A stretch of DNA of 64,000 bases from Escherichia coli (lineage in GTDB: Bacteria > Pseudomonadota > Gammaproteobacteria > Enterobacterales > Enterobacteriaceae), in NCBI RefSeq assembly GCF_044324875.1, contig NZ_CP172188.1. One strand, written 5' to 3'. Shown one piece after another: positions 4,197-63,375 of the stretch. Made by a program: the position numbers and the translations under genes. Position 1 is the first letter of the stretch. Every line of letters begins with the position of its first letter. The notes below the pieces were generated by a model. It worked only from the letters and a program-made list of their open reading frames with translations, made no database searches and had not been told where the DNA came from.

Positions 4197-4301
4197 AATA
4201 CTGACTGTTGCGCCCTGGCATTATCGTGGGGTATATTTCTACGGCACCTTAGAAAAACGGGTGCCGGGATTGGAACCCCGGATAATGCAAAAGGCGACAC
4301 A

Positions 4302-4323
4302 GACGCCGAAAGCGTCTTTTCTT
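4302..4323 (+). terminator. rho-independent terminator candidate
   Basis: gacgc-cgaaa-gcgtc hairpin followed by ttttctt. Confidence 0.5.
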
Positions 4324-4329
4324 GTGTCA

Positions 4330-4508
4330 TGCCATCGCACAGCCATACGTAGCGTTTAGCTCAGAGATCAATGGTAGTGCTGGCTGGGCTGCCGAAAGGC
4401 AGGCCGGTTCCCTTTTGCGCCGGTAGTTCCAACCCAGTCAGTGCTACCGCCATTGAGATTGGAACCTCACGCGGTAGCTCCTTAAATTAGCAAAAGGAGG
4501 CTGCCAAT
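4330..4508 (+). promoter_or_regulatory. structured leader of antirepressor module A (differs from the leaders of modules B/C/D)
   Basis: Hairpins ctgcc-gaaa-ggcag (~4388-4401) and gttccaa...ttggaac (~4415-4458); AGGAGG before the ATG at 4509. Confidence 0.3.
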
Positions 4509-5695: not shown

Positions 5696-5724
5696 AACTA
5701 CTAAATAACCGGATTCTCCGCACG

Positions 5725-6009
5725 ATGAAGAAAATAGATTTCACTTACTCTGCTGCCACAATCCAGCGACGTTTCAGTCTCATAAGGGAAGTGGAACTAT
5801 CAAAAAACTGGTATCAAATTCTACTGGATGAAGAGTTTTCACTGATGGTTATAGCAGAAAAATTGGCTATGCCGAATGACCGGCACAAGGTCATAGCCAG
5901 CCTGGATCTGGTGACAAACAGATACTGGGAATCCGAGGAACTACTTGAAGTTGGCTTGATACGCGAGATGATAGAACAGGCTGTTCCCCTCCACTTACAG
6001 CAACCATAA
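5725..6009 (+). CDS. hypothetical protein (94 aa)
   Basis: ORF at the start of an AT-rich segment; no recognisable motif. Confidence 0.4.
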   Translation: MKKIDFTYSAATIQRRFSLIREVELSKNWYQILLDEEFSLMVIAEKLAMPNDRHKVIASLDLVTNRYWESEELLEVGLIREMIEQAVPLHLQQP

Positions 6010-6145
6010 TTGAAAGGTCTTAACGATAGTCTGCCACGAATAGTTACTTTCACTGCCTAAAGTTATTTAATTGCATTACAAAGTGTAAATTAGTAACATT
6101 AGAATCTCACACAGCACTATAACTATATGTTTTTTATGTAAAAGG

Positions 6146-6505
6146 ATGATAATCGTGGCTACTAAAATTAAACTTGAAAACCCTCAAACTGGCGAATCAA
6201 TCACCGGTTTTTATGGTTTTTCCTGGACTACATTCTTGTTTGGTGCTTTTCCAGCTTTGTTCAGGAAAGACTTTATAACTTTTATTGGGGTATTCGTAGT
6301 GATGCTGATACTGGCATTCCTCACAGCCGGAATTGGCCCGTGGATTGCCTCATTTATCTGGGCGTTCATGTATAATAAATATTTCACCGTAAATAAGATA
6401 AAACAAGGCTTCATTTTTGCTGGTTCTCACACAGAAAATGAGTTGGCTGCTAGCAAGCTAGGATTGTCATTAAATCAAAACAACTGCAAAACTATTACCG
6501 AGTAA
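6146..6505 (+). CDS. small inner-membrane protein (two hydrophobic segments)
   Basis: 119 aa; hydrophobic stretches FSWTTFLFGAFPALF and FIGVFVVMLILAFLTAGIGPWIASFIWAF; alternative GTG start at 6155 has better Shine-Dalgarno spacing. Confidence 0.45.
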   Translation: MIIVATKIKLENPQTGESITGFYGFSWTTFLFGAFPALFRKDFITFIGVFVVMLILAFLTAGIGPWIASFIWAFMYNKYFTVNKIKQGFIFAGSHTENELAASKLGLSLNQNNCKTITE

Positions 6506-6545
6506 TAGCCAAAAAGCAGGCTTAATAGTAAGCCTGCTATGTCAA

Positions 6546-7367
6546 TCACGAATCTCTCTGACAATTCAGAAACATAAACGCCCGCTTGTCTGTTAAATCC
6601 GTAACATAATACTCTCTCATGCCTGTAGGTTTTATTCTACGAGCATATACAAACTTATGAACTGGTTGTTTTTCCCCATAACTTACATCAGTCCTAAATT
6701 CATCAACCACGCTACCATCTTTTTCGACTTCCTTCCTCACCAGCTTATTTTCTAATGCTGGCTTTAATTCGTCCATGCCACTAAAAGCATCCTGGCCTGT
6801 ACTATTGCCTCGATTTCCGCGCGGCAAATCCCAGGAGAAATAAGTGCCATAGTCAGTAATCACACGATCCCAGACTCCGGTATCCCCCATATAGTTAGAG
6901 CGCTTTCCATTGTAGGTTACAGCCACTTTACAGGAGTACGTTTCTTCATTCCCTCCAGCCTTACTCGCTGTGGTTGCAGGGATATTTTGGATAGATGCGC
7001 TTACGTCATCTTGCGTTAATTCCTCAACTGGAGCAAATTCATATATGGGTGTGCCGAGGCTATTTAAATATAACTTATATCTAACCCTAAGCGCACTTCC
7101 ATCTGAGAATTCATACGTTCCCAGGCATTGGAGCTTATTTTTTTCTCTTATCTCATTGATCTGATAATAAGCATCAATTACAGAGATTGCTTCCTGATCG
7201 TCCTTCAGCAGTTCATTATAATCATCAATTAACATCTGTCTGGTTTTAGGGGCATTGCAGTCAATTTTGCTAAAATCATAAGCAAAGGCAAATGTGGGAA
7301 CAGAGAGAGCAACAACAGTAGCAAGTATTGTTGAGGAACATCTTTTTCCATTTTTTATAAAAAACAT
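6546..7367 (-). CDS. secreted / periplasmic protein of unknown function
   Basis: Start chosen at MFFIKNGKRCSSTILATVVALSVPTFAFA (signal-peptide-like, GGAG 8 nt upstream); the ORF track extends to 7430; AT-rich. Confidence 0.5.
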   Translation of the reverse strand: MFFIKNGKRCSSTILATVVALSVPTFAFAYDFSKIDCNAPKTRQMLIDDYNELLKDDQEAISVIDAYYQINEIREKNKLQCLGTYEFSDGSALRVRYKLYLNSLGTPIYEFAPVEELTQDDVSASIQNIPATTASKAGGNEETYSCKVAVTYNGKRSNYMGDTGVWDRVITDYGTYFSWDLPRGNRGNSTGQDAFSGMDELKPALENKLVRKEVEKDGSVVDEFRTDVSYGEKQPVHKFVYARRIKPTGMREYYVTDLTDKRAFMFLNCQRDS

Positions 7368-7607
7368 TTCATTAACTCCATACTTTACCATCTTAGCCGC
7401 GAGCGCGGTCCCTAAAACCATTAACTTCACTGCACCGTTCCTTCATGCAATCAAAATGACTTTTATGTTATAAAAATAATCAGCCAAATCAACATGATTT
7501 AGGCCAAATGCGTATTCCGCTCTATTCGATCACGGATTGGCATCGAAGTCCGATCAGCGATTCGCATCCATTCGATCAACCGGGAACTTAACTTTTTCTA
7601 CCGCTTT

Positions 7608-8363
7608 TTAACGCGTTTTTTCGCTGCTTTCCACTACCGGGGGATTTTTCCTCAGTGACTCTCCCTGAAGGACCACTCGGTGTGAGTTATGTACCAGTCT
7701 GTCCAGGATGGCATCTGCTGTTGTTGGGTTCTCCATCAGACCATGCCATTTATCTACCGGGAACTGGCTTACCACTATCGTGCTGCTTTGTCCGTAACGA
7801 TCCTCTATGAGCTCCAGAAGGTCATTACACTGGGCGTTACTTAACTGTTCCAGCCCCAGATCGTCCAGGATTAGAACCTGTATTTTTTGCAACTGTTTCA
7901 GATATTTCAGCCAGCTGCCATCAACACGTCCCTGAGCCAGTTGTTCCAGTAATCGCCCGGTTCTACAGTACCGGACGCTGTGTTTCTGTCGACATGCCTG
8001 TTCGCCCAGCGCATTGGCTATCCAGCTCTTGCCACATCCTGTCGGACCGGTTATCAGCAGGTTTTTCCTGTGGGTTATGTAGTGGCCGTTCAGCAGTTCT
8101 CTCATCTGTTCAGCCCGCAGACCTCTTGAGGCCGGATAGCGCAGCCCTTCCGGTGTTGCCTGGTATTTCAGGCCGGCATTTTTTCTCAACCGTGCCACAC
8201 GGCTGTTTTCCCTGCTCAGAAGCTCGTCATCAACCAGCAGCGTCAGCCTTTCCTCGAACGACAGTTCGTCGTAGGTCTGAGGCGTTTCCCGCTGCCGTAT
8301 CAGGCTCCCGGCCATCGCCGGGAGTTTCAGTTGGGTCAGTTTGTTTAACAGGTTATCACTCAT
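7608..8363 (-). CDS. istB: IS21-family transposition helper ATPase IstB
   Basis: Walker A GPTGCGKS, DExx-like LILDDLG; start set at MSDNLL with AAGGAA Shine-Dalgarno; the ORF track extends upstream to 8606. Confidence 0.85.
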   Translation of the reverse strand: MSDNLLNKLTQLKLPAMAGSLIRQRETPQTYDELSFEERLTLLVDDELLSRENSRVARLRKNAGLKYQATPEGLRYPASRGLRAEQMRELLNGHYITHRKNLLITGPTGCGKSWIANALGEQACRQKHSVRYCRTGRLLEQLAQGRVDGSWLKYLKQLQKIQVLILDDLGLEQLSNAQCNDLLELIEDRYGQSSTIVVSQFPVDKWHGLMENPTTADAILDRLVHNSHRVVLQGESLRKNPPVVESSEKTR

Positions 8364-8379
8364 ACTGTTGTTCCTTCTG

Positions 8380-9915
8380 TCAGTGGTAGTAGCCCGGACC
8401 ACGCAGGTTTTCATGCTCTGAAGCATATGCCGGATGTTGTTCGCCCTGGCGGGATAATGGAAGCTCCAGGTTCTCCCGATGGTGACGCAGCAGATTGTCG
8501 ATAAAGCGTCTGTCAGGGGCGTTATAGTGCAGGGCAACGTAACAGGCCTTTTCCAGCCGTTCCGGGCCGTATTTTTTCTGAAGTGCCAGCAGCCCCAGAA
8601 CTGCACGATAAGCCAGTTCCGGATGGGGTTTTGCCTTCAGCATGGATTCAACCACCCGGCCTGTGGACGGGCCCGTACGTTTTCCCTGCTCGATCAGGCG
8701 TTCCGGTGTCCATGTCCCGTGCTGCCGGTGGCGCTCTGGCATGTGAAGCGGATTGGTTGTGTGTTTATATTCATGTGTGCTGCGCGGATGTTGCGCCACA
8801 CACTGCCCCTTGTGCCAGAGCTGTACCACCGACTGCCCCGCCTTCAGTGACAGACGCTGACCGACCAGTTCGTGTGGAACGGAGTACCAGTGACGGGCAT
8901 ATTCAACGTGGTAGTCAGGGCCAACCTTCACAGCTTTGTATTCCGTGTATTCATAAGGTGCCAGAGGCAGCGGAGAGAGTGCTGGCGCATCCAGTATGCG
9001 GAAGCGTTCTGCACGGGTTTGATTGCCGTACCCCTTCATTGGCCGGTTATTCATGTCTGTCAGTAACTCCCTAAGGCGCGCATTCAGCGCCCTGAGCGTG
9101 TGGAAGGTTTCATTACGGATGCGGGCAAGAAGCCATCGTTCAACGATGAGGACGCCGTTTTCTGCTTTTGGTTTATCTTTAGGTTTGCGTGGTCGGGCCG
9201 GGATGATAACCGTGCCATAGTGCTCAGCCAGTGCCTGATAACTGTCGTTGATGACAGGCTCATATCGATCGGCCTTTTTCACTGCGCTTCTGAGGTTATC
9301 GGGGATGAGCAGCTTCGGTACGCCGCCCAGGAAGGTCAGGCAACGGCTGTGGGCATTTAACCATGACATCATGTCCTGACCTTCGCACGCTTCAACGTAG
9401 GTATAGTTGGACGCCCCCATTACGGCCACGAAGATTGCCACGCGGCGTATCTCACCGGTGTCCGGATTAATAACAGGAACCGTAGGACCACAGAAGTCGA
9501 TAAAAAGCTTTTCGCCGGCACGATGCTCCTGGCGCATGGAGAGACGTCGCGTTTTTTTCCACTCCCGGTAGCAACGGCAGAAGTGCGAGTATCCCATCGC
9601 TTTGTTACCCGCCTGTGCCTTGTATTCCATCCACAACAGTTGCCGCGTCACACCTGGTTTTCTCATTTCCGTATCGAAGTACAACATGTCAGGCATTACA
9701 AGCTCTGATGCAAAGGTGTCTTTGGGCGGAAAAATGAGTTTCTCCAGCGTGTCATGGGATATATCAGCAGGTAATGGCCATGACAGAGAAGAGGCTTTGA
9801 AGCGGGCAAGAACCTCAAAAACGGTTGAGGCGCTGATGTGTAACGTCAGTCCGATACAACGGTTAGTCAGCTTCTTGTCGAACTTGAGCTGAAGGATCTT
9901 AAAACAGGTTTCCAT
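8380..9915 (-). CDS. istA: IS21-family transposase IstA
   Basis: ~511 aa from METCF... (AGGAG Shine-Dalgarno); N-terminal HTH and a DDE-type core; the ORF track extends to 10026. Confidence 0.85.
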   Translation of the reverse strand: METCFKILQLKFDKKLTNRCIGLTLHISASTVFEVLARFKASSLSWPLPADISHDTLEKLIFPPKDTFASELVMPDMLYFDTEMRKPGVTRQLLWMEYKAQAGNKAMGYSHFCRCYREWKKTRRLSMRQEHRAGEKLFIDFCGPTVPVINPDTGEIRRVAIFVAVMGASNYTYVEACEGQDMMSWLNAHSRCLTFLGGVPKLLIPDNLRSAVKKADRYEPVINDSYQALAEHYGTVIIPARPRKPKDKPKAENGVLIVERWLLARIRNETFHTLRALNARLRELLTDMNNRPMKGYGNQTRAERFRILDAPALSPLPLAPYEYTEYKAVKVGPDYHVEYARHWYSVPHELVGQRLSLKAGQSVVQLWHKGQCVAQHPRSTHEYKHTTNPLHMPERHRQHGTWTPERLIEQGKRTGPSTGRVVESMLKAKPHPELAYRAVLGLLALQKKYGPERLEKACYVALHYNAPDRRFIDNLLRHHRENLELPLSRQGEQHPAYASEHENLRGPGYYH

Positions 9916-10307
9916 AGTGCTCCTGGATTTTCTCTTTCTGGACATTGACGTCTCCACTGGTTTAAACACGGCAATGGAGACTGTGGTGAAAAGAGTTAAT
10001 TCCCGGAGTGACTGGCAGGATGCCAATCAATGATCGGAAGCATGCCAAATCGTGATCGATTGTGATGCCAAACTGTGATCGGAGATGGATGCCAAATCAT
10101 GATCGATTCGAATGCCAAACTGCGATCGATTCAGATGCCATTTTGCAGCCAAATTTCTGTCAAAAAATAAAATCCACAAAAAGTGGTTGACACTATTTTG
10201 GAAATCACAAACTGCACATAATCCATCGCGCTAACGGCTCCCGTTGAAGGTTCTTTTGACGATTAACTTTCAGCCGAAGCGCGGTAGGGAGTCATAACGC
10301 CAAAGCA

Positions 10308-10331
10308 GGCCGCCATGTGCGGCCTTTTTTT
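10308..10331 (+). terminator. rho-independent terminator candidate between the IS21 end and the next gene
   Basis: ggccgc-catgt-gcggcc followed by a T7 run. Confidence 0.4.
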
Positions 10332-10358
10332 GTATCCGTCATCCGTGGAGGAAGGACA

Positions 10359-11012
10359 ATGGAAAAGATCGCAATATTCAGCCTGACCACCAGCAAGCCT
10401 CAAATGCTCACTGCAATACTGAAAGACGGTGCTCTCATTATTAACGAAGTAAAACCCCTTCCCGCGTCAGCATTGGAGCAAAAGCAAAAAATTCCTCCAG
10501 CTATAGCAGCCCTGCGGAAAAGCAAATTTAAGGTACTGGTAGACGAAATTACGCCAACGATCTCCGCTGGCACCGGAGCAAGCCAGGTTACTCTCAAGAC
10601 CCGTCATGCCGATGGCAGAGCAGCAATCATCGTCGGGATGGAAAGATACAGAGAGTTAAAACTCCAGAAGCTATTATCCCTGCCGCAAAATAACAAAGGT
10701 GCTTTCGAAATCCCTGACTCCATCGTTGACACCGAATACAACGGTAACGGAGAAGAAGTCTACCGGGTGAACTGGCAGGATATCAGGCCGGAACATATTC
10801 TGATGGTCCTGTGTTGCTACGCGACCGTATACCACAACGTTGCCAGTGCAGATTACGTAGAGCAGATGACCGGCACAGTCGAGAAAGAGCAAAAAACAGG
10901 CATACTCGCTTCGTTCCTGTCCATTATTGGGCATGAAAAAGTTGAAGCAGGCACCTCCCAGCCAAAGTCACTGGCTGGGAAAGAAGTTGATGAAGATACC
11001 GTGATACTTTGA
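10359..11012 (+). CDS. hypothetical protein (217 aa)
   Basis: GGAGGAAGGA Shine-Dalgarno before the ATG at 10359; no recognisable motif. Confidence 0.45.
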   Translation: MEKIAIFSLTTSKPQMLTAILKDGALIINEVKPLPASALEQKQKIPPAIAALRKSKFKVLVDEITPTISAGTGASQVTLKTRHADGRAAIIVGMERYRELKLQKLLSLPQNNKGAFEIPDSIVDTEYNGNGEEVYRVNWQDIRPEHILMVLCCYATVYHNVASADYVEQMTGTVEKEQKTGILASFLSIIGHEKVEAGTSQPKSLAGKEVDEDTVIL

Positions 11013-11348
11013 TCACATTAGTAGCTTTGTTAACTCCCTCAATACCAGGTAGAAGAGTAACAAAAACACTGACGTGGATACCTGCTGAGTTAAAGAAGCA
11101 CTAATGAATTTATTCAATAAATCAATCAGCTTATTAAAAATATTCATCTTTTCGAATCCATTCGATCGGTAAATAACACCCAGCTCACTATCGAGCTGGT
11201 CCACGCCTTAAGATTAATGAAAGTCACTTGTTGACAGTCAATAAATTCCAGGGTGGCGAAAAAACTCTGTCTATACGGATAGTGCTTGCATTTTACTCTT
11301 TCTGCGTGTAGCGTATATACACAGGTTGCACGCACGAATGGAATTATT

Positions 11349-11630
11349 TTGATTAAGTCATTTCGCCATAAAGGGCTTGAACGCTTTTTCAAGACAGGTT
11401 CAACCGCAGGCATTCAGGCCAAACATGCGGTTAAGCTACGCATTCAATTGACTGCGCTTAATACAGCTAAACGCCCGGACGATATGTCTGCGCCTGGATG
11501 GGAATTGCACCCTCTAAAGGGGGCGGACCTTAAAGGTCACTGGGCAATATCGGTAAACGGTAACTGGCGACTTACCTTCCGATTTGAAGGAGAAGACGCA
11601 ATTCTAGTTGACTATCAGGATTATCATTGA
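11349..11630 (+). CDS. higB: HigB-type toxin (plasmid-killer / RelE-like fold)
   Basis: [17 protein letters not shown]...[40 protein letters not shown] closely resembles Rts1-type HigB; probable TTG start at 11349. Confidence 0.7.
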
Positions 11631-11638
11631 GGAACACT

Positions 11639-11920
11639 ATGAGTCGTATGCATAATCCCGCGCATCCAGGCGCGGTTCTTCGTGAATATTTGGGAGACAT
11701 GTCAGTCACAGACGCCGCTGCGGCATTAGGCATTACTCGCACGGCGCTTTCCCGAATTCTGAATGAAAAAGCAGGTATATCTGCTGATATGGCACTTCGT
11801 CTGGAGTCCGCTCTTGGAACCAGTGCCGAAATGTGGACCGGTATGCAATCCCAGTATGAGCTTTGGGTTGCTTCGCAAACCACTCGCCCAAACATCCGTC
11901 CATTATTTTTCCACGCATAA
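11639..11920 (+). CDS. higA: HigA-type antitoxin (HTH, XRE-like)
   Basis: [18 protein letters not shown]...[14 protein letters not shown]...; start overlaps the higB stop region; GAGGA Shine-Dalgarno. Confidence 0.7.
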
Positions 11921-12012
11921 TTTCACAGCGTCACCAGGCCTGGTGACGCTGCTTTCTCGCATTTCACACCCTGCATACAGTTTTCCCCAGGTTATGACTG
12001 AGGGGCTTTGTT

Positions 12013-12342
12013 ATGGGCTATAGCAGACTCGACGATAGGTACATTGAAGACGATATTTTTCGTGCGCTGTTTCACCAGGAAATGATTAAGCGGGTATCGG
12101 AGTATCACTCTGATAATTTCCAGTACACGATAAAGATTGATGAAGTATATCGTTCAGACCTTGCAGCCTACAGGGCGTATGGCAATGCAGATTTGCGCTG
12201 GGTATTCCGGGTGCTGGTGGGCCATGAGTCAGAAATGGAAGAAATGCCCGCCGGGACCACGTTAACTCTTCCTGATGTGGCATGGCTGAGGAATAAGATC
12301 CGTGATTACGCGAGCGCGGAACCGGAGATAGAAAATGCCTGA
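12013..12342 (+). CDS. hypothetical protein (109 aa), first gene of a two-gene operon
   Basis: ORF; its stop overlaps the start of the next gene by 8 nt. Confidence 0.45.
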   Translation: MGYSRLDDRYIEDDIFRALFHQEMIKRVSEYHSDNFQYTIKIDEVYRSDLAAYRAYGNADLRWVFRVLVGHESEMEEMPAGTTLTLPDVAWLRNKIRDYASAEPEIENA

Positions 12343-13525
12343 TTTCCTGAAAAACCAGGACGGGCGCTATATCACTGACGGCCTGTCCTCTAAGGACTTC
12401 ACGCGTTTATTCGACCTTATCAGGAAAGAACAAACCCGTAAGCGCCGGCAAGCTCACCGGACGCTGACGCCAGGTAGACTGAGGAACAAATCCGCCGAAG
12501 ATATTCTCAAGTTAGGGAAGAAAAAAGGCGGCACGTTCTTCACGCGAGACGACCTGAAAGGTTTCGAAAAGCTACGGAGTAAAACGCGCGAAAAATATGA
12601 CAGCAAGACGGCTGGCATCACATACGCCCAGCTGGTGGCATCCAGCCAGGCAATCGATATTAAGCGTGCAAATAACGCCGTGGATGACGGATCTGGTATC
12701 AAAAGAGCTACACCCGTATCTCTTCGCCACAATGTGATTAATATCCGCGTAGAAGCATCGGATATATCCGTCCACCAGCACCATATCGTCCGGATACGCT
12801 TTGAAGAATGGGATCAGATGGTTGATGATATCGCAGAAGACGATAAATCAGCTCTCAAAATCACTAAATCACTGTGCGCCGGGCGAGTGTCTTTCGATTG
12901 TGACTGTGGTCGTCATCAATACTGGTATCGTTACATCGCCACTGCGGGTAACTTTGCCCTGGCACCGCCAAAAGAATACGCCTATCCAAAAGTTCGCAAC
13001 CCGAAGCTGCAAGGCGTCGCCTGTAAACACGTGATCCACTCAATGACGCGGTTACAGTCCGCCAGTTGGCAAATGAGTATTGCTCGTGCGCTACAAAAGG
13101 CTGCAACGCAAATTGCATTTGGTGACGATCGCCGCCGTACAACCAAACACTTCTCAAAAGAAGACGAGAAGGAGTTTAATCGCAATCGTAGCAGTAAAAC
13201 AAACGTTGAAGCCGCCAAACGCGAATGGAGGCTCTATCAGAAGCGCCAGGCAGCTTTAAGTACAAAACTGGCAAAGGACAACGGCAATATCGACAAGCTA
13301 CGTGACCAATTGACCAGGGCCAGAAAGTTGTCAGACGCACAGAAAAAACGGGCGGCTGCAAAAGAAGCGGCCTTGCAACGTGAGAAACAGAAAAATAAGG
13401 AACTTCAGCAACGCCTTGCCGATCAGTTCGCACTGAAGAAGCAGGCGTTCATTGATGCGCTTGTCATGGCTGGAACACCACCAGCACAAGCTGAAAAAAT
13501 GTTCATGGAGTACATAAAAAATTAA
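12335..13525 (+). CDS. hypothetical protein with a SWIM-like zinc-finger motif and a basic coiled-coil C-terminus
   Basis: CAGRVSFDCDCGRHQ...GVACKHVIH (CxC...CxH spacing); Lys/Arg/Glu/Gln-rich C-terminal 130 aa. Confidence 0.5.
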   Translation: MPDFLKNQDGRYITDGLSSKDFTRLFDLIRKEQTRKRRQAHRTLTPGRLRNKSAEDILKLGKKKGGTFFTRDDLKGFEKLRSKTREKYDSKTAGITYAQLVASSQAIDIKRANNAVDDGSGIKRATPVSLRHNVINIRVEASDISVHQHHIVRIRFEEWDQMVDDIAEDDKSALKITKSLCAGRVSFDCDCGRHQYWYRYIATAGNFALAPPKEYAYPKVRNPKLQGVACKHVIHSMTRLQSASWQMSIARALQKAATQIAFGDDRRRTTKHFSKEDEKEFNRNRSSKTNVEAAKREWRLYQKRQAALSTKLAKDNGNIDKLRDQLTRARKLSDAQKKRAAAKEAALQREKQKNKELQQRLADQFALKKQAFIDALVMAGTPPAQAEKMFMEYIKN

Positions 13526-13526
13526 C

Positions 13527-13552
13527 AAAGGTGGGTTTATCCCACCTTTTTA
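13527..13552. terminator. bidirectional terminator between convergent genes
   Basis: aggtggg-tttat-cccacct flanked by A and T runs. Confidence 0.5.
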
Positions 13553-14277
13553 TTAGCATCGCATTTAATTTTTTCAAGTGAATCAGAAAGCTTTGAGAGA
13601 ATCTCCTCAAGTGTCTCCCTGTCATTTGTATCACCCGAACGAAAAGATGAGTTTTTCACGGCAGTAAAAAATTCATAAAAATCATCCAACGAATTTAAGC
13701 TCTCACCTTTCTCTCTATATAATTTAATAACATGACGGATATCGCTATCCACACATTCAATCTGTTCCCTAACTTCTTCTACCTTTCTTTTTAATGATTC
13801 ATGTTCTTCTTTTTCTTTTTCAAGACGCTCTTCAACGTCTTTCCGTTTCTTAGTAAGATCATTAATGTCTCTGTTAATTTTTCTTACTTGTTCTTTTTTG
13901 TCTTCAATTTTATCTATCTCTCTCAATTTAGCGTATATTGTGCCAGTCACCATAGAAATTAGTAAAGTTAACATTGGGGCTAATATTGAAGCCACAACAC
14001 CATAAATAAAAGGCAAGACAAAATGAGCTACGAATGAGGGTACAAAAACATTCCCAAATAATGGAATCTTTTCCCCAACAAACACCATAGATAATGTATA
14101 CATAACATCATCTTTTGACTTCAACAATATAAATATATCTCGCCAGTTAGAAATTAAAAATGAAATAAAAATGTAGGCAAAAACCTTATTAAACAACTTA
14201 TCTTTTACAGCATCTTCTATCAGATTTTGGGCGGATGATTTTTCATTTTCCTTTTCTATTGATGAATCAGTGCTCAT
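13537..14277 (-). CDS. membrane protein with a long C-terminal coiled coil (unknown function)
   Basis: 246 aa; hydrophobic segments (FAYIFISFLISNW; VFVPSFVAHFVLPFIYGVVASILAPMLTLLISMV) then a K/E-rich heptad-like region; visibly AT-rich. Confidence 0.5.
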   Translation of the reverse strand: MSTDSSIEKENEKSSAQNLIEDAVKDKLFNKVFAYIFISFLISNWRDIFILLKSKDDVMYTLSMVFVGEKIPLFGNVFVPSFVAHFVLPFIYGVVASILAPMLTLLISMVTGTIYAKLREIDKIEDKKEQVRKINRDINDLTKKRKDVEERLEKEKEEHESLKRKVEEVREQIECVDSDIRHVIKLYREKGESLNSLDDFYEFFTAVKNSSFRSGDTNDRETLEEILSKLSDSLEKIKCDANKKVG

Positions 14278-14337
14278 ATAATCACCAAATATTTAAACCT
14301 TGATTTTATGTAAAATCGGCCCTCCAGACTGCCAAAC

Positions 14338-14718
14338 TTAAACACCAACTAGGCTTTCAAGAGGAATGCCAAACTGGGAATGTAAACGACGAATCATAGG
14401 TAACGTTAAATTTCGTGTCCCATTTAGCACTTCGTAAACACGATTTGACTTACCAATCGCCGGTTCCAGATCCTTCACGGTCAACCCTTGCTATTCCATA
14501 CGGGATTTAATGGCTTCAATAGGTGATGGCGGCTCAATTGGGTAATGTTTTTTCTCGTACTCCTCAATGAGAAGACACATAACCTCCAAGAAATTACCTT
14601 CCGGGGTGTTCGTTTCCGGTTCGTTATCGAACATCGGTTCTACCGCACGCAGTGCGGCCTCATAATCTTGTTCTGTACGGATAGTTTTAATGTTCATTAA
14701 TTCCAAAGGAAAGCCCAC
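14338..14718 (-). pseudogene. higA-like antitoxin gene (N-domain plus HTH) interrupted by an in-frame TAG
   Basis: 75-aa ORF ...IKSRME then TAG at 14491-14493; the same frame continues QGLTVKDLEPAIGKSNRVYEVLNGTRNLTLPMIRRLHSQFGIPLESLVGV to TAA at 14338, resembling the E. coli K-12 HigA C-terminal HTH. Confidence 0.45.
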
Positions 14719-14753
14719 TTGTTAAGTGGGCTTTTTGTATGTGTTTTACTATA

Positions 14754-15092
14754 TCAGGCTGCTTTTTTATTCAGGTTCCGCTGAGAAATAAATTTTTCAG
14801 CAGTATTGATACGACTTAACTCTTCCTGAACGCGCATGTCATTTTCGACTTCCCACAGGTCTACTGCGGTCTGGAGATTAATCCAAAAATCTACAGAAGT
14901 ATCGAATGCTTTTGCCAGGCGATATGCCATATCCATCGTTAGCTTACGATTATTATTAACAAGAGCACTTACGGTGTTACGATGAACATGAAGTATTTCT
15001 GCTAACTCGTTGATCTTCAGCTCTAACGGCTCCAGGTATTCGTACAGCAGGATATCACCTACGGTCGTCGGTTTTCTGGTTGCCTGTTTCAT
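14754..15092 (-). CDS. higA: HigA-family antitoxin (HTH), second TA pair
   Basis: KPTTVGDILLYEYLEPLELKINELAEILHVHRNTVSALVNNNRKLT...FWINLQTAVDLW matches the HigA antidote pattern. Confidence 0.7.
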   Translation of the reverse strand: MKQATRKPTTVGDILLYEYLEPLELKINELAEILHVHRNTVSALVNNNRKLTMDMAYRLAKAFDTSVDFWINLQTAVDLWEVENDMRVQEELSRINTAEKFISQRNLNKKAA

Positions 15093-15162
15093 TTTTTGCC
15101 CTTACTAGCGTGCGTATTAAGTGGACTCTGGTCAGAACCCGGTCCGTAACCGGGTATCTGTT

Positions 15163-15465
15163 TTAGTATTTGTGAGGGTCGAGATACAAGTCCTCGGCCT
15201 TTCCGTTAACCCACTTAAAAATTAACCTATATTGCTTATTCACCCTTACTGATGAATAGCCATTTAGCTTCCCTGACAGTTCCTCATACCGATTACCTGG
15301 TGGTGATCTTAAATCCTTACAGGTAGTTGCGGCATTGATAATGTCCAACTTCCGTGACAATGTCATATGAATATCAGGAGGTATCTTTCTATGTGGTGTT
15401 GAAAATTCAAAAAAATCATCAAGCCACGCATCCCTGAAATCCTTTATGTTAATTTTTTTGGTCAT
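15163..15465 (-). CDS. higB: HigB-like killer toxin, second TA pair
   Basis: ...DLRSPPGNRYEELSGKLNGYSSVRVNKQYRLIFKWVNGKAEDLYLDPHKY resembles the plasmid-killer (HigB) family; lies immediately upstream of the antitoxin. Confidence 0.65.
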   Translation of the reverse strand: MTKKINIKDFRDAWLDDFFEFSTPHRKIPPDIHMTLSRKLDIINAATTCKDLRSPPGNRYEELSGKLNGYSSVRVNKQYRLIFKWVNGKAEDLYLDPHKY

Positions 15466-15627
15466 TAGTCATTTGATCCTCCGTGATGATTACCGAATGC
15501 CATAACTATAGCGCACTGTTGCACTGTGCGCAAGTGCATTTTATGAATTCCCCCTCCTTCATCCAAAATCACAATCTCCCGAAAATCTTCCTTTCGATAC
15601 CTGACAGATCGACCTTTGAGGATGCTT

Positions 15628-16419
15628 ATGGGCCGTTTTGACGAATGGTTTGCTGACGATGCAAACCTGGCAAGTAAGGAGTCAGAACATGACAGCACGC
15701 AGAGAGAAACGCCAGCACCGATTGAAGCGAATGCAGGAGGCGCGCCGGAACATGGCAATACCGGTTCGGATTCATTCAGCATTCTGGAAGAGCAACCCGC
15801 CGCCAAAGCTGATAGCCATGATAATTTTGCTGATAGCAACGGTGGCCTTACTTCGGATGCTGGCGAATCAGATATAGCCATACTTCCATCTTCCCTGGCT
15901 GGCAGAGAACCGACTCCACAGTTAAAAGCACGCTATAACGGGCATAAAGCCTTTAACGACCAAATCCGCGCAGACTGGATGCTGATTATTGAATCCAGCC
16001 CAGACGCGTTTCAGGCTCTCTTATATCGACCAGATGTTGGCACATATGGGGTAGTCAGCGACGAAACAGGAGAAGAGTCATTCACCGAACTGGATAACAA
16101 CCAACGCGAACTGACTTACCAGGAACCTGAAATCGTTTATGTGCTGGATAACCCTGACGGGCGTGACTCTTTCCATGCGATTGACGCAGACGGTGAGCAG
16201 GATGGCTTAACCGATGATGTTCTGATTCTGCGTATTGCAGCAAATAACGTCCCCGTCGGCTCAATTCTTGAATGGAATGAAGAGATGGTAAACGGCGTAG
16301 CGCGCCGCTGGTGGTACGTGCACCGTATTTTTAGCTACGGCACACAGCATGTTGGTTCGCTTTACTACTGCATACCTGCCAGGAATTTTGATACGACTCA
16401 AAACGGAGTGATCGAATGA
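15628..16419 (+). CDS. phage virion morphogenesis protein (unknown role)
   Basis: First gene of a four-gene overlapping operon that ends in a spike-like gene; GAGGA Shine-Dalgarno; start at 15628. Confidence 0.4.
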   Translation: MGRFDEWFADDANLASKESEHDSTQRETPAPIEANAGGAPEHGNTGSDSFSILEEQPAAKADSHDNFADSNGGLTSDAGESDIAILPSSLAGREPTPQLKARYNGHKAFNDQIRADWMLIIESSPDAFQALLYRPDVGTYGVVSDETGEESFTELDNNQRELTYQEPEIVYVLDNPDGRDSFHAIDADGEQDGLTDDVLILRIAANNVPVGSILEWNEEMVNGVARRWWYVHRIFSYGTQHVGSLYYCIPARNFDTTQNGVIE

Positions 16420-27996: not shown

Positions 27997-28237
27997 GTTG
28001 CAGCAAATTCTGCGACCGGGTTTAGCAGCCTGAATGTACATGCGGACAACCGCAGATATCCGATATTGCGGTATTTTTGTGTCCGTAAAACCATGTTACG
28101 CCCGAATTATGGTGGGGCGTGATGGGGAGGCTTCGGCCTGCTGGTTTCATGTACGCCAGTCTGCTAACCCCGTCACGTCCTGCCACCCGTTTAGCAGCGG
28201 GTAGCAGGTTGTTAAACCTGTACATGAGGCCGTAACT
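27997..28237 (+). ncRNA. structured leader with an embedded c4-like antisense regulator and two target sites (module B)
   Basis: Elements TTAGCAG/GTACATG at 28022-28042 and 28191-28226 (the second abuts the GAGG Shine-Dalgarno) are complementary to CATGTAC/CTGCTAA at 28148-28167; the complementarity is kept by compensatory changes in modules C and D. Confidence 0.5.
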
Positions 28238-38325: not shown

Positions 38326-38566
38326 AGTTACGGCCTCATGTACAGGTTTAACAACCTGCTACCCGCTGTCAAACAGGTGGCAGGGCGTGACAGGGTTGAC
38401 AGACTGGCGTACATGAAACCAGCAGGCCGAAGCCTCCCCATCACGCCCCACCATAATTCGGGCGTAACGTGGTTTACGGACACAAAAATACCGCAATATC
38501 GGAAATCTGCGGATGTCCGCATGTACATTCAGGCTGTCAAACCTGGTCGCAGAATTTGCTACGACG
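38326..38566 (-). ncRNA. structured leader with a c4-like antisense regulator (module C)
   Basis: Minus-strand elements TTGACAG/GTACATG (targets) and CATGTAC/CTGTCAA (antisense) in the same arrangement as module B. Confidence 0.5.
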
Positions 38567-63135: not shown

Positions 63136-63375
63136 GTCGTAGCAAATTCTGCGACCAGGTTTGACAGCCTGAATGTTAGTGCGGACAACCGCAGATTTCC
63201 GATATTGCGGTATTTTTGTGTCCGTAAACCGCGTTACGCCCGAATTATGGTGGGGCGTGATGGGGAGGCTTCGGCCTGCTGGTTTCACTAACGCCAGTCT
63301 GTCAACCCTGTCACGTCCTGCCACCTGTTTGACAGCGGGTAGCAGGTTGTTAAACCTGTTAGTGAGGCCGTAACT
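63136..63375 (+). ncRNA. structured leader with a c4-like antisense regulator (module D)
   Basis: TTGACAG/GTTAGTG at 63161-63181 and 63329-63364; complementary CACTAAC/CTGTCAA at 63286-63305. Confidence 0.5.

Follow-up and report, generated by a model that had tools for sequence, protein, structure and literature searches.

The DNA considered here is a 64,000-nucleotide stretch of Escherichia coli contig NZ_CP172188.1 (the window), and our subject is its segment from 5.7 to 15.5 kb, which runs from an antirepressor (ant) module to the baseplate operon of a P1-like phage-plasmid. A 9.8-kb query from this segment aligned with Escherichia phage D6 (NC_050154) over 59% of its length at 96% identity, and with ~90-kb non-mobilizable plasmids of E. 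coli and Salmonella over 54-67% of its length at 94-99% identity. Phage D6 is a member of the P1 group 2 phage-plasmids (PMC10879196), and gene names were taken from its record and from the PGAP-annotated plasmid pAPEC201603. After the icd-ant module, the order in D6 is pmgF-like, orf80, orf79 ("similar to simB"), mat, 26, 25, orf73, orf72, HigA/HigB, 7, 24, 6 and 5. The window has the gene order of D6 orf81-orf69, with 95-99% nucleotide identity for the pmgF-like gene, orf80, orf79, mat, 26, 25, orf72, orf71/70 and gene 7 (Table 1). It differs from D6 in an ISSso4-type insertion sequence (IS) between orf79 and mat, an additional HigBA pair between mat and 26, an orf73 allele only 39% identical to that of D6, and an amber codon in orf72.

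Table 1. Features of the ant-to-baseplate segment (window coordinates; ORF, open reading frame; GC, guanine-plus-cytosine content; GC3, GC at third codon positions; HTH, helix-turn-helix).
Feature	Position	Strand	Evidence and remarks
pmgF-like gene	5725-6009	+	42% identical to P1 PmgF over 74 aa; pmgF-like in D6; backbone
Small membrane protein, D6 orf80 family	6146-6505	+	phrog_4915, function unknown; GC 38%
Secreted two-domain protein, D6 orf79 family	6546-7367	-	SimB-like N-domain and conserved C-domain; GC 40%
IS21-family (ISSso4-like) element	7510-10147	-	Boundaries from empty sites in D6 and pAPEC201603
istB	7608-8363	-	NF038214, 257 bits (cut-off 200), E 2e-76
istA	8380-9945	-	NF033546, 284 bits (cut-off 160), E 1e-84
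Conserved leader with intrinsic terminator, upstream of mat	10187-10335	+	Hairpin 10307-10325 followed by T7
mat (maturation control) homologue	10359-11012	+	33% to P1 Mat over 208 aa, E 4e-39; backbone
Small ORF with hydrophobic C-terminus	11013-11204	-	Position of D6 orf77; convergent with mat
HigB-1 toxin, Rts1 HigB type	11349-11630	+	PF05015; phrog_3066, toxin of toxin-antitoxin system
HigA-1 antitoxin	11639-11920	+	TIGR02607, 98.6 bits (cut-off 47.7); HTH_3
Gene 26 homologue, baseplate protein	12013-12342	+	41% to P1 gp26, E 1e-21; phrog_1269 baseplate wedge subunit, E 2e-36
Gene 25 homologue, tail-stability protein (396 aa)	12335-13525	+	56% to P1 gp25, E 1.5e-136; phrog_1722 tail protein
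Membrane-anchored coiled-coil protein, D6 orf73 family	13537-14277	-	phrog_8191, function unknown; GC 32%, GC3 27%
Orphan HigA-type antitoxin pseudogene (D6 orf72)	14338-14697	-	Amber TAG at 14491-14493
HigA-2 antitoxin	14754-15092	-	TIGR02607, 102.5 bits; 100% identical to D6 orf71
HigB-2 toxin, GraT type	15163-15465	-	PF05015; GC 38%; 100% identical to D6 orf70
138-aa ORF overlapping the start of gene 7	15465-15881	-	No family match; most likely not a gene
Gene 7 homologue	15628-16419	+	46% to P1 gp7; D6 annotation; right boundary of slot C

These features very probably make up an ordinary ant-to-baseplate segment of a D6-type phage-plasmid, in which a conserved frame is interrupted by three slots of exchanged AT-rich cargo and, separately, by a recent IS. 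The frame would comprise the pmgF-like gene, mat, and then genes 26 and 25 at the head of the late tail and baseplate operon, as in the P1 order 26-25-7-24-6-5. Backbone proteins are 97-100% identical across six relatives and 79-97% identical in an E. marmotae plasmid, with ratios of nonsynonymous to synonymous substitution (dN/dS) of 0.0-0.3. The pmgF-like protein is 98-100% identical in D6 and pAPEC201603, Mat (annotated "maturation control protein" in D6 and the plasmids) is 98-99% identical in the relatives with a dN/dS of 0.04-0.06, and the gene 26 protein is 99-100% identical in E. coli and Salmonella relatives. Gene 26 lies directly upstream of gene 25 and overlaps it, as at the head of the late operon in P1, and homologues of gp25 occur in every P1-like phage of the phage collection searched. 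Beyond the last slot the operon resumes at gene 7 with 7-24-6-5, of which gp24 is also a P1 homologue. In P1, mat, 25 and 26 are among the genes listed as known to be essential, and gp26, which resembles T4 gp53, has a modelled place in the cryo-EM map of the baseplate (PMC10695390; PMC9024508; bioRxiv 10.1101/2025.07.21.665459), whereas pmgF is non-essential (PMC10695390), as are simABC according to the P1 literature.

The likeness to P1 thus extends to homologues of gp25, gp7, gp26, PmgF, SimB and Mat and to the 26-25 and 7-24-6-5 gene orders. The two elements differ in that P1 genes 26-25-7-24-6-5 are contiguous behind the late promoter LP26, with gene 7 starting 3 bp after 25, whereas here a cassette splits 25 from 7. 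Furthermore, in P1 mat adjoins ref, pmgF adjoins bplB and sim adjoins c4. An initial annotation of the window had classed the gene behind a terminator at 10359-11012 and a "SWIM-motif operon" at 12013-13525 as accessory cargo. The terminator is indeed present, but the genes are the homologues of P1 mat and of P1 26 and 25, respectively; because of their P1 homology, assigned roles and near-invariance in relatives, these three genes, about a third of the non-IS sequence, belong to the conserved backbone with assigned morphogenetic roles. The SWIM label itself was half right: the gene 25 product has a CxC...CxH pattern (C189-D-C191...C230-K-H232; window 12899-13030) that is invariant in P1 gp25 and in the E. 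marmotae homologue, but no Pfam family matched the protein at E<=10, SWIM PF04434 included. The 38-residue spacer between the two halves is longer than in a typical SWIM motif.

Between the frame genes, three intergenic slots (A, the pmgF/mat gap; B, the mat/26 gap; C, the 25/7 gap) hold small AT-rich modules that are probably swapped among relatives by recombination. The GC content averages 47% over the window and falls to 33-43% between 6.0 and 7.5 kb and between 13.5 and 15.5 kb; it is 32-44% in the cargo, with the exception of HigBA-1 (47-51%), and 48-50% in the backbone. Terminator-like hairpins number 28, where 10.4 +/- 3.0 were expected in shuffled sequence, and those at 6515-6538, 13527-13549 (adjoining orf73) and 14708-14736 (after higA-2) stand at module ends. 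Among otherwise near-identical relatives the contents of A, B and C vary independently of each other; the baseline for the counts given below is a set of 118 plasmid records that hold 26-25 at a coverage of at least 80%. Comparison with related phage-plasmids, as proposed in the initial annotation, gave the limits of the slots and of the IS. The cargo idea therefore holds only for three short slots, which together account for roughly half of the sequence outside the IS. AT-richness, variability and bounding hairpins mark their contents, namely the orf80/SimB-like pair, HigBA-1 and the orf73-orf72-HigBA-2 cassette, and the backbone genes are to be taken out of the cargo. Most of the original inventory stood, namely the two AT-rich genes for a membrane and a secreted protein at 6146-6505 and 6546-7367, the two HigB/HigA pairs (both toxins matching PF05015, both antitoxins TIGR02607), the decayed higA-like gene and the AT-rich membrane coiled-coil protein.

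The combination of IS site, HigBA-1, orf73 allele and orf72 amber codon is new in the collections searched. All of these observations fit the known biology of P1-like phage-plasmids, with its mosaic cargo slots, toxin-antitoxin (TA) addiction modules and IS traffic, and TA addiction modules have already been noted for D6-like plasmids (PMC6799933). A PADLOC and hidden Markov model check of the ORFs, suggested along with the reading as defence cargo, found no complete known defence system: PADLOC-DB v2 returned for 19 ORFs only coiled-coil noise, a cross-match between IstB and the AAA+ domain of DrmD, and a partial PD-Lambda-2_B. A defence or exclusion role is one that we infer for the cargo.

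Slot A would encode a small inner-membrane protein and a Sec-exported protein whose N-domain is homologous to SimB. The orf80-family protein has one long hydrophobic stretch (residues 37-74). For the SimB-like gene an upstream in-frame GTG at 7430 is a possible start, giving a 294-aa ORF (6546-7430) in which residues 29-137 align with P1 SimB over its whole length at 45% identity. Its N-terminus carries a hydrophobic, signal-like segment ending in AFA (AFA/YDF). The C-terminal ~130 aa are strongly conserved with two conserved cysteines, and the N-domain is swapped among relatives. The AlphaFold2 model is poor overall, with a predicted local distance difference test (pLDDT) score of 57.8, although the N-domain reaches a pLDDT of ~80 and forms a helix packed on a beta-sheet; neither a Foldseek comparison of the model with the PDB (E<=0.001) nor a PDB sequence-profile search gave a match. 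Older work on P1 attributes the Sim exclusion phenotype to exported SimC. The P1 record labels simC "superimmunity" and simA and simB "putative accessory function". P1 SimB is a 111-aa single-domain protein that occurs with SimC, whereas here the SimB domain is fused to another and SimC is missing: BLASTP, tblastn and hhalign detected no similarity of the protein to SimC. A diverged SimC as the source of the C-domain was considered and rejected (hhalign probability 0.1%). By analogy with Sim, the SimB-like protein would most likely, and plausibly, act in the periplasm in superinfection exclusion.

The orf80/SimB-like pair occurs in 56 plasmid records. Alternative cargo in the same slot was seen in pSL26_91 (our locus L010, 1436-4537), which holds a dCTP deaminase and two genes of unknown function, and in the E. 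marmotae plasmid (locus L008, 334-1502); PADLOC recognised nothing among the pSL26_91 set and the E. marmotae slot proteins.

In slot B, HigB-1 matched the Proteus vulgaris Rts1 HigB (PDB 4MCT) with an E-value of 4e-23. The 878-bp HigBA-1 segment (11075-11952) is present in 17 D6-like plasmids of the ~118 relatives, and also, at 90% identity, in ~220-kb Escherichia conjugative plasmids; D6 lacks it and has a hairpin-containing 206 bp in its place. The second pair lies in slot C, where HigB-2 matched PDB chain 6F8S_B ("Putative Killer protein") with an E-value of 2.8e-14; this structure we take to be the Pseudomonas putida GraTA complex. PF05015 matched two members of the scanned set, which are taken as the two window toxins. 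Both pairs resemble Rts1 HigBA and 6F8S in their toxin-first order, PF05015 toxins and TIGR02607 HTH antitoxins, and differ in that they lie in the tail-gene region of a phage-plasmid. HigB is a ribosome-dependent mRNA endonuclease and HigA an HTH antitoxin. Most likely, the two HigBA pairs would serve to maintain the low-copy plasmid prophage through post-segregational killing, and they might also abort infection by other phages.

On the mat side of slot B, a minus-strand sequence at 11211-11229, upstream of the small ORF convergent with mat, is the only window match to the P1 late-promoter pattern AAGTGACTT-N4-TAATCT. The motif is invariant in four relatives, and one such match is compatible with chance (0.32 expected). 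A scan of the window for the P1 C1-operator consensus, meant like the promoter scan to tell late backbone transcription from that of the cargo, gave no match. Evidently, D6 uses other late-promoter and operator sequences than P1.

For slot C, five alternative arrangements were seen. In P1 nothing lies between 25 and 7, and D6 and the window carry orf73-orf72-higA2-higB2. Most of the D6-like plasmids sampled (for example, pRHB39-C20_3) have orf73, a 70-codon remnant of orf72 and higA2-higB2; in pF374-2, pZ1323HEC0010-2 and a diverged 84-kb contig (L020), orf73 is followed by an intact orf72-type HTH gene and an adjoining PF09907 HigB, which lies 4 bp from the HTH gene in the first two. The E. 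marmotae plasmid (locus L008, 4372-4911) holds an unrelated "stationary phase growth adaptation protein". The whole cassette of the window was matched over at least 80% by none of the plasmid records, and 111 match parts of it. As we read it, a minus-strand cassette would here split the late operon, with the GraT-type HigBA first, then the orphan orf72 and then orf73. The 120-codon frame of orf72 is collinear with D6 orf72 and carries CAG>TAG at codon 69 and five further private amino-acid changes. The intact D6 protein matched E. coli HigA (5IFG) with an E-value of 9e-8 and is therefore assigned as the antitoxin of a PF09907 toxin. The GraT-type pair has taken the place of that toxin in D6 and in the window, and the breakpoint coincides with the start codon of orf72. 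The decay of orf72 now proceeds independently: the majority type shows a deletion, the window an amber codon.

The alleles of orf73 are deeply divergent. The window protein is 39-42% identical to the alleles of D6, pAPEC201603, pRHB39-C20_3 and pZ1323HEC0010-2 and 82.5% identical to that of pF374-2, in the midst of flanking genes that are 97-100% identical. Positive selection was considered as a cause and rejected, given that a dN/dS of 0.22-0.34 with saturated dS speaks against rapid adaptive change. Because dN/dS lies in that range and dS against D6 is saturated, the divergence is better read as that of old, functional alleles which recombination has exchanged. The family came to 66 proteins in a full profile search of 1.84 billion representatives, where a word-indexed search had given only 12 clusters. 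Full-length members have 200-270 aa and share an architecture of an N-terminal membrane domain (KDKLFNK...NW..I.I..KSK), a variable coiled coil and a small C-terminal domain. The AlphaFold2 model is all-helical and poor (pLDDT 67.5; predicted template modelling score (pTM) 0.28).

In P2-like prophages one member of the family, P0033, is encoded on the opposite strand in the interval from gpV to gpS, where P2 carries the non-essential orf30. The P2-like S/V slot and slot C are alike in that each has a minus-strand, non-essential membrane-protein gene inside a myovirus tail or baseplate cluster, although Orf30 itself is not homologous to orf73 (hhalign probability 0.1%). In a P2-like prophage (locus L012, 5001-6576) the orf73-family gene adjoins a gene for a 247-aa protein with an HNH-like Cys/His motif, and the two may form a two-gene cargo module. 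Other members of the family occur singly within mobile elements, in the neighbourhood of H-NS, methylase or WYL regulators.

Judging from location, variability and architecture, the most likely role of the orf73-family protein is in exclusion or abortive infection (Abi) at the inner membrane, a view to be held with low certainty. A bolder proposal, which we regard as speculative and on balance unlikely, is that the family represents a new kind of single-gene inner-membrane superinfection-exclusion or Abi determinant in variable tail-cluster slots of temperate myoviruses, placed in the D6 lineage behind a HigB/HigA promoter and perhaps acting as the third component of a PD-lambda-2-like system. 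This uncharacterised family of membrane coiled-coil proteins, found repeatedly in tail-cluster slots of myoviruses, is a lead rather than an established result.

The proposal has a counterpart at the level of the whole cassette. Slot C could be, or descend from, a three-gene Abi system related to PD-lambda-2, with a HigB-family toxin, a HigA-like regulator and orf73 as a required third component (sensor or effector), here rewired to another HigBA and with the original antitoxin inactivated. In PADLOC, the PF09907 toxin of pF374-2 matched PD-Lambda-2_A over its full length (E 1e-41) and D6 orf72 matched PD-Lambda-2_B at positions 1-119/402 (E 4e-43), the window orf72 reaching 1-69/402. The order HigB(PF09907)-HTH-orf73 is kept in pF374-2, pZ1323HEC0010-2 and the L020 contig, orf73 is intact and under purifying selection in every arrangement, and PD-lambda-2 requires a third component for defence (PMC9519451). 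The resemblance to PD-lambda-2 (Vassallo et al. 2022, PMC9519451) nevertheless stops at the N-terminal, HTH-containing region of orf72, which is like the HigA-like part of component B. The B homologue has no C-terminal peptidase domain (119 aa against 402) and in the window it is a pseudogene, neither HigB-1 nor HigB-2 matched the PD-Lambda-2_A models, and no neighbouring ORF matched component C, a P4-antitoxin-like protein, in PADLOC, orf73 itself matching no PD-lambda-2 model, C included. With no peptidase domain and no component C, the slot C pair is not PD-lambda-2 as defined in PMC9519451. Furthermore, orf73-family genes occur alone, with no TA gene, in the P2-like prophage and other elements, a Klebsiella plasmid fragment has a HigB/HTH pair but not orf73, and in the window a terminator-like hairpin parts higA-2 from orf72 and orf73. 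Descent from such a trio is thus rather improbable, and the HigB(PF09907)-HigA-orf73 group, with its resemblance to a peptidase-less PD-lambda-2, is likewise to be seen as a lead and not as established.

The IS between slot A and mat needs no share in any of this. IS21-family elements have terminal inverted repeats with multiple repeated motifs and produce target duplications of 4-8 bp. The element in the window was correctly described at the outset as complete: both IstA and IstB match their families, four copies of an 18-bp motif at 10019-10129 face in the opposite direction to those at 7526-7544, and a 7-bp target duplication, GCCAAAT, stands at 7503-7509 and 10148-10154. Copies that are 99.7-100% identical and annotated as ISSso4 family are found in many E. 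coli genomes, and none at this site was found in any plasmid or complete E. coli genome searched. The element has the istA-istB organisation, repeated terminal motifs resembling IstA sites and the 7-bp duplication of the ISSso4 group of IS21, and only its location differs. It would represent a separate, recent transposition into the intergenic region between the divergent SimB-like gene and mat, at a distance of ~140 bp from the SimB-like ATG and ~40 bp from the conserved mat leader, on the upstream side of both. The IS is a private, recent and simple insertion and brought no cargo.

Several points weigh against the reading as an ordinary D6-type segment with defence-related cargo. The slot frequencies come from megablast and, because this reaches identities of about 85% or more only, they undercount diverged alleles. 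No function for orf73 is assigned by PHROG, Pfam, PADLOC or NCBIfam, the last three yielding only coiled-coil noise, and orf80 and the SimB-like protein had no PADLOC, NCBIfam or Pfam match. The role of SimB in P1 is itself no more than a putative accessory one, and there is no SimC homologue here. On the side of the frame, P1 gp25 and gp7 ("tail stability") gave weak signals in virion proteomics and are not in the baseplate model. Finally, Klebsiella conjugative plasmids keep ref-mat-26-25 without other tail genes in the 10-kb region examined, so that a purely structural role of mat and 25 is unproven.

The Klebsiella case is best documented in a K. pneumoniae IncFIB/IncFII plasmid (NZ_AP024580; our locus L009, 2706-6430), which is conjugative and non-phage. 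It carries intact ref, mat (52% identical at the amino-acid level), 26 (65%) and 25 (60%), beside arsenic and lactate genes, and after gene 25 a HigB(PF09907)/HTH pair, the block ending at the position of slot C. About 125 Klebsiella plasmid records match the region of the gp25 Cys/His motif. Such persistence could mean that mat-26-25 is a semi-autonomous, non-structural module, a zinc-binding DNA or protein regulator with its partners, instead of tail hardware; the absence of gp25 from the P1 baseplate model, its weak virion signal and its invariant Cys/His motif would agree with this. On that view the initial suspicion about the "SWIM-motif operon" would be correct, though for a mistaken reason. 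However, gp26 has a modelled place in the P1 baseplate, all three genes are among the known essential genes of P1, and 26 and 25 head its late tail operon and occur in every P1-like phage searched. Erosion of P1-like phage-plasmids into plasmids that acquire conjugation genes afterwards is also known (PMC10879196) and explains the Klebsiella fragments without a new function. The block there is probably a fossil of a P1-like element, though its ORFs are intact, and a non-structural module is very improbable.

Least tenable is the initial annotation's view of 5700-15500 as one contiguous accessory defence or exclusion island inserted in the phage backbone, possibly assembled by the IS: patchy GC, the closeness of TA pairs, membrane or secreted proteins of unknown function and an IS, and the empty 25/7 junction of P1 would all suit it, but the cargo modules are kept apart by mat, 26 and 25, which are homologues of P1 genes, hardly vary among relatives and have been assigned morphogenetic functions. 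Moreover, the three modules vary independently, the 7-bp duplication around the IS is clean and every relative shows an empty site, so that we give this view almost no credence.

The preferred reading, a conserved D6-type frame with three exchangeable slots and a separate IS, is mainly of corrective value. A reading from composition and neighbourhood would class essential tail and baseplate genes (26 and 25), along with mat, as defence cargo, and would also credit the IS with assembly of an island. In addition, it offers a usable slot map for the D6 lineage, in which accessory genes turn over at pmgF/mat, mat/26 and 25/7 and the flanks stay 97-100% identical. These slots are natural places to seek new exclusion or defence genes, or to insert payloads, in D6-type phage-plasmids.

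Two observations concern RNA. The leader of mat is ~150 nt long, with a TTGACA box and a strong terminator whose end is separated from the start codon of mat by ~25 nt. Its conservation exceeds that of the Mat protein and reaches as far as the Klebsiella IncF plasmid fragment; the leader could be an attenuator or a small RNA. Its folding z-score is -2.75; RNAalifold found only three compensatory pairs among five sequences, too few for the leader to be called a structured RNA, and a search of Rfam with the leader gave nothing at gathering or relaxed thresholds. Across the 64-kb window there are four Rfam matches to C4 antisense RNA, at 4367-4454 (+), 28105-28190 (+), 38373-38458 (-) and 63243-63328 (+). 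Three of the four have adjacent c4-a1b1 target elements, and an isrK match at 4244-4322 (+) adjoins the first; several immI-type antirepressor control modules appear to be present within one element.

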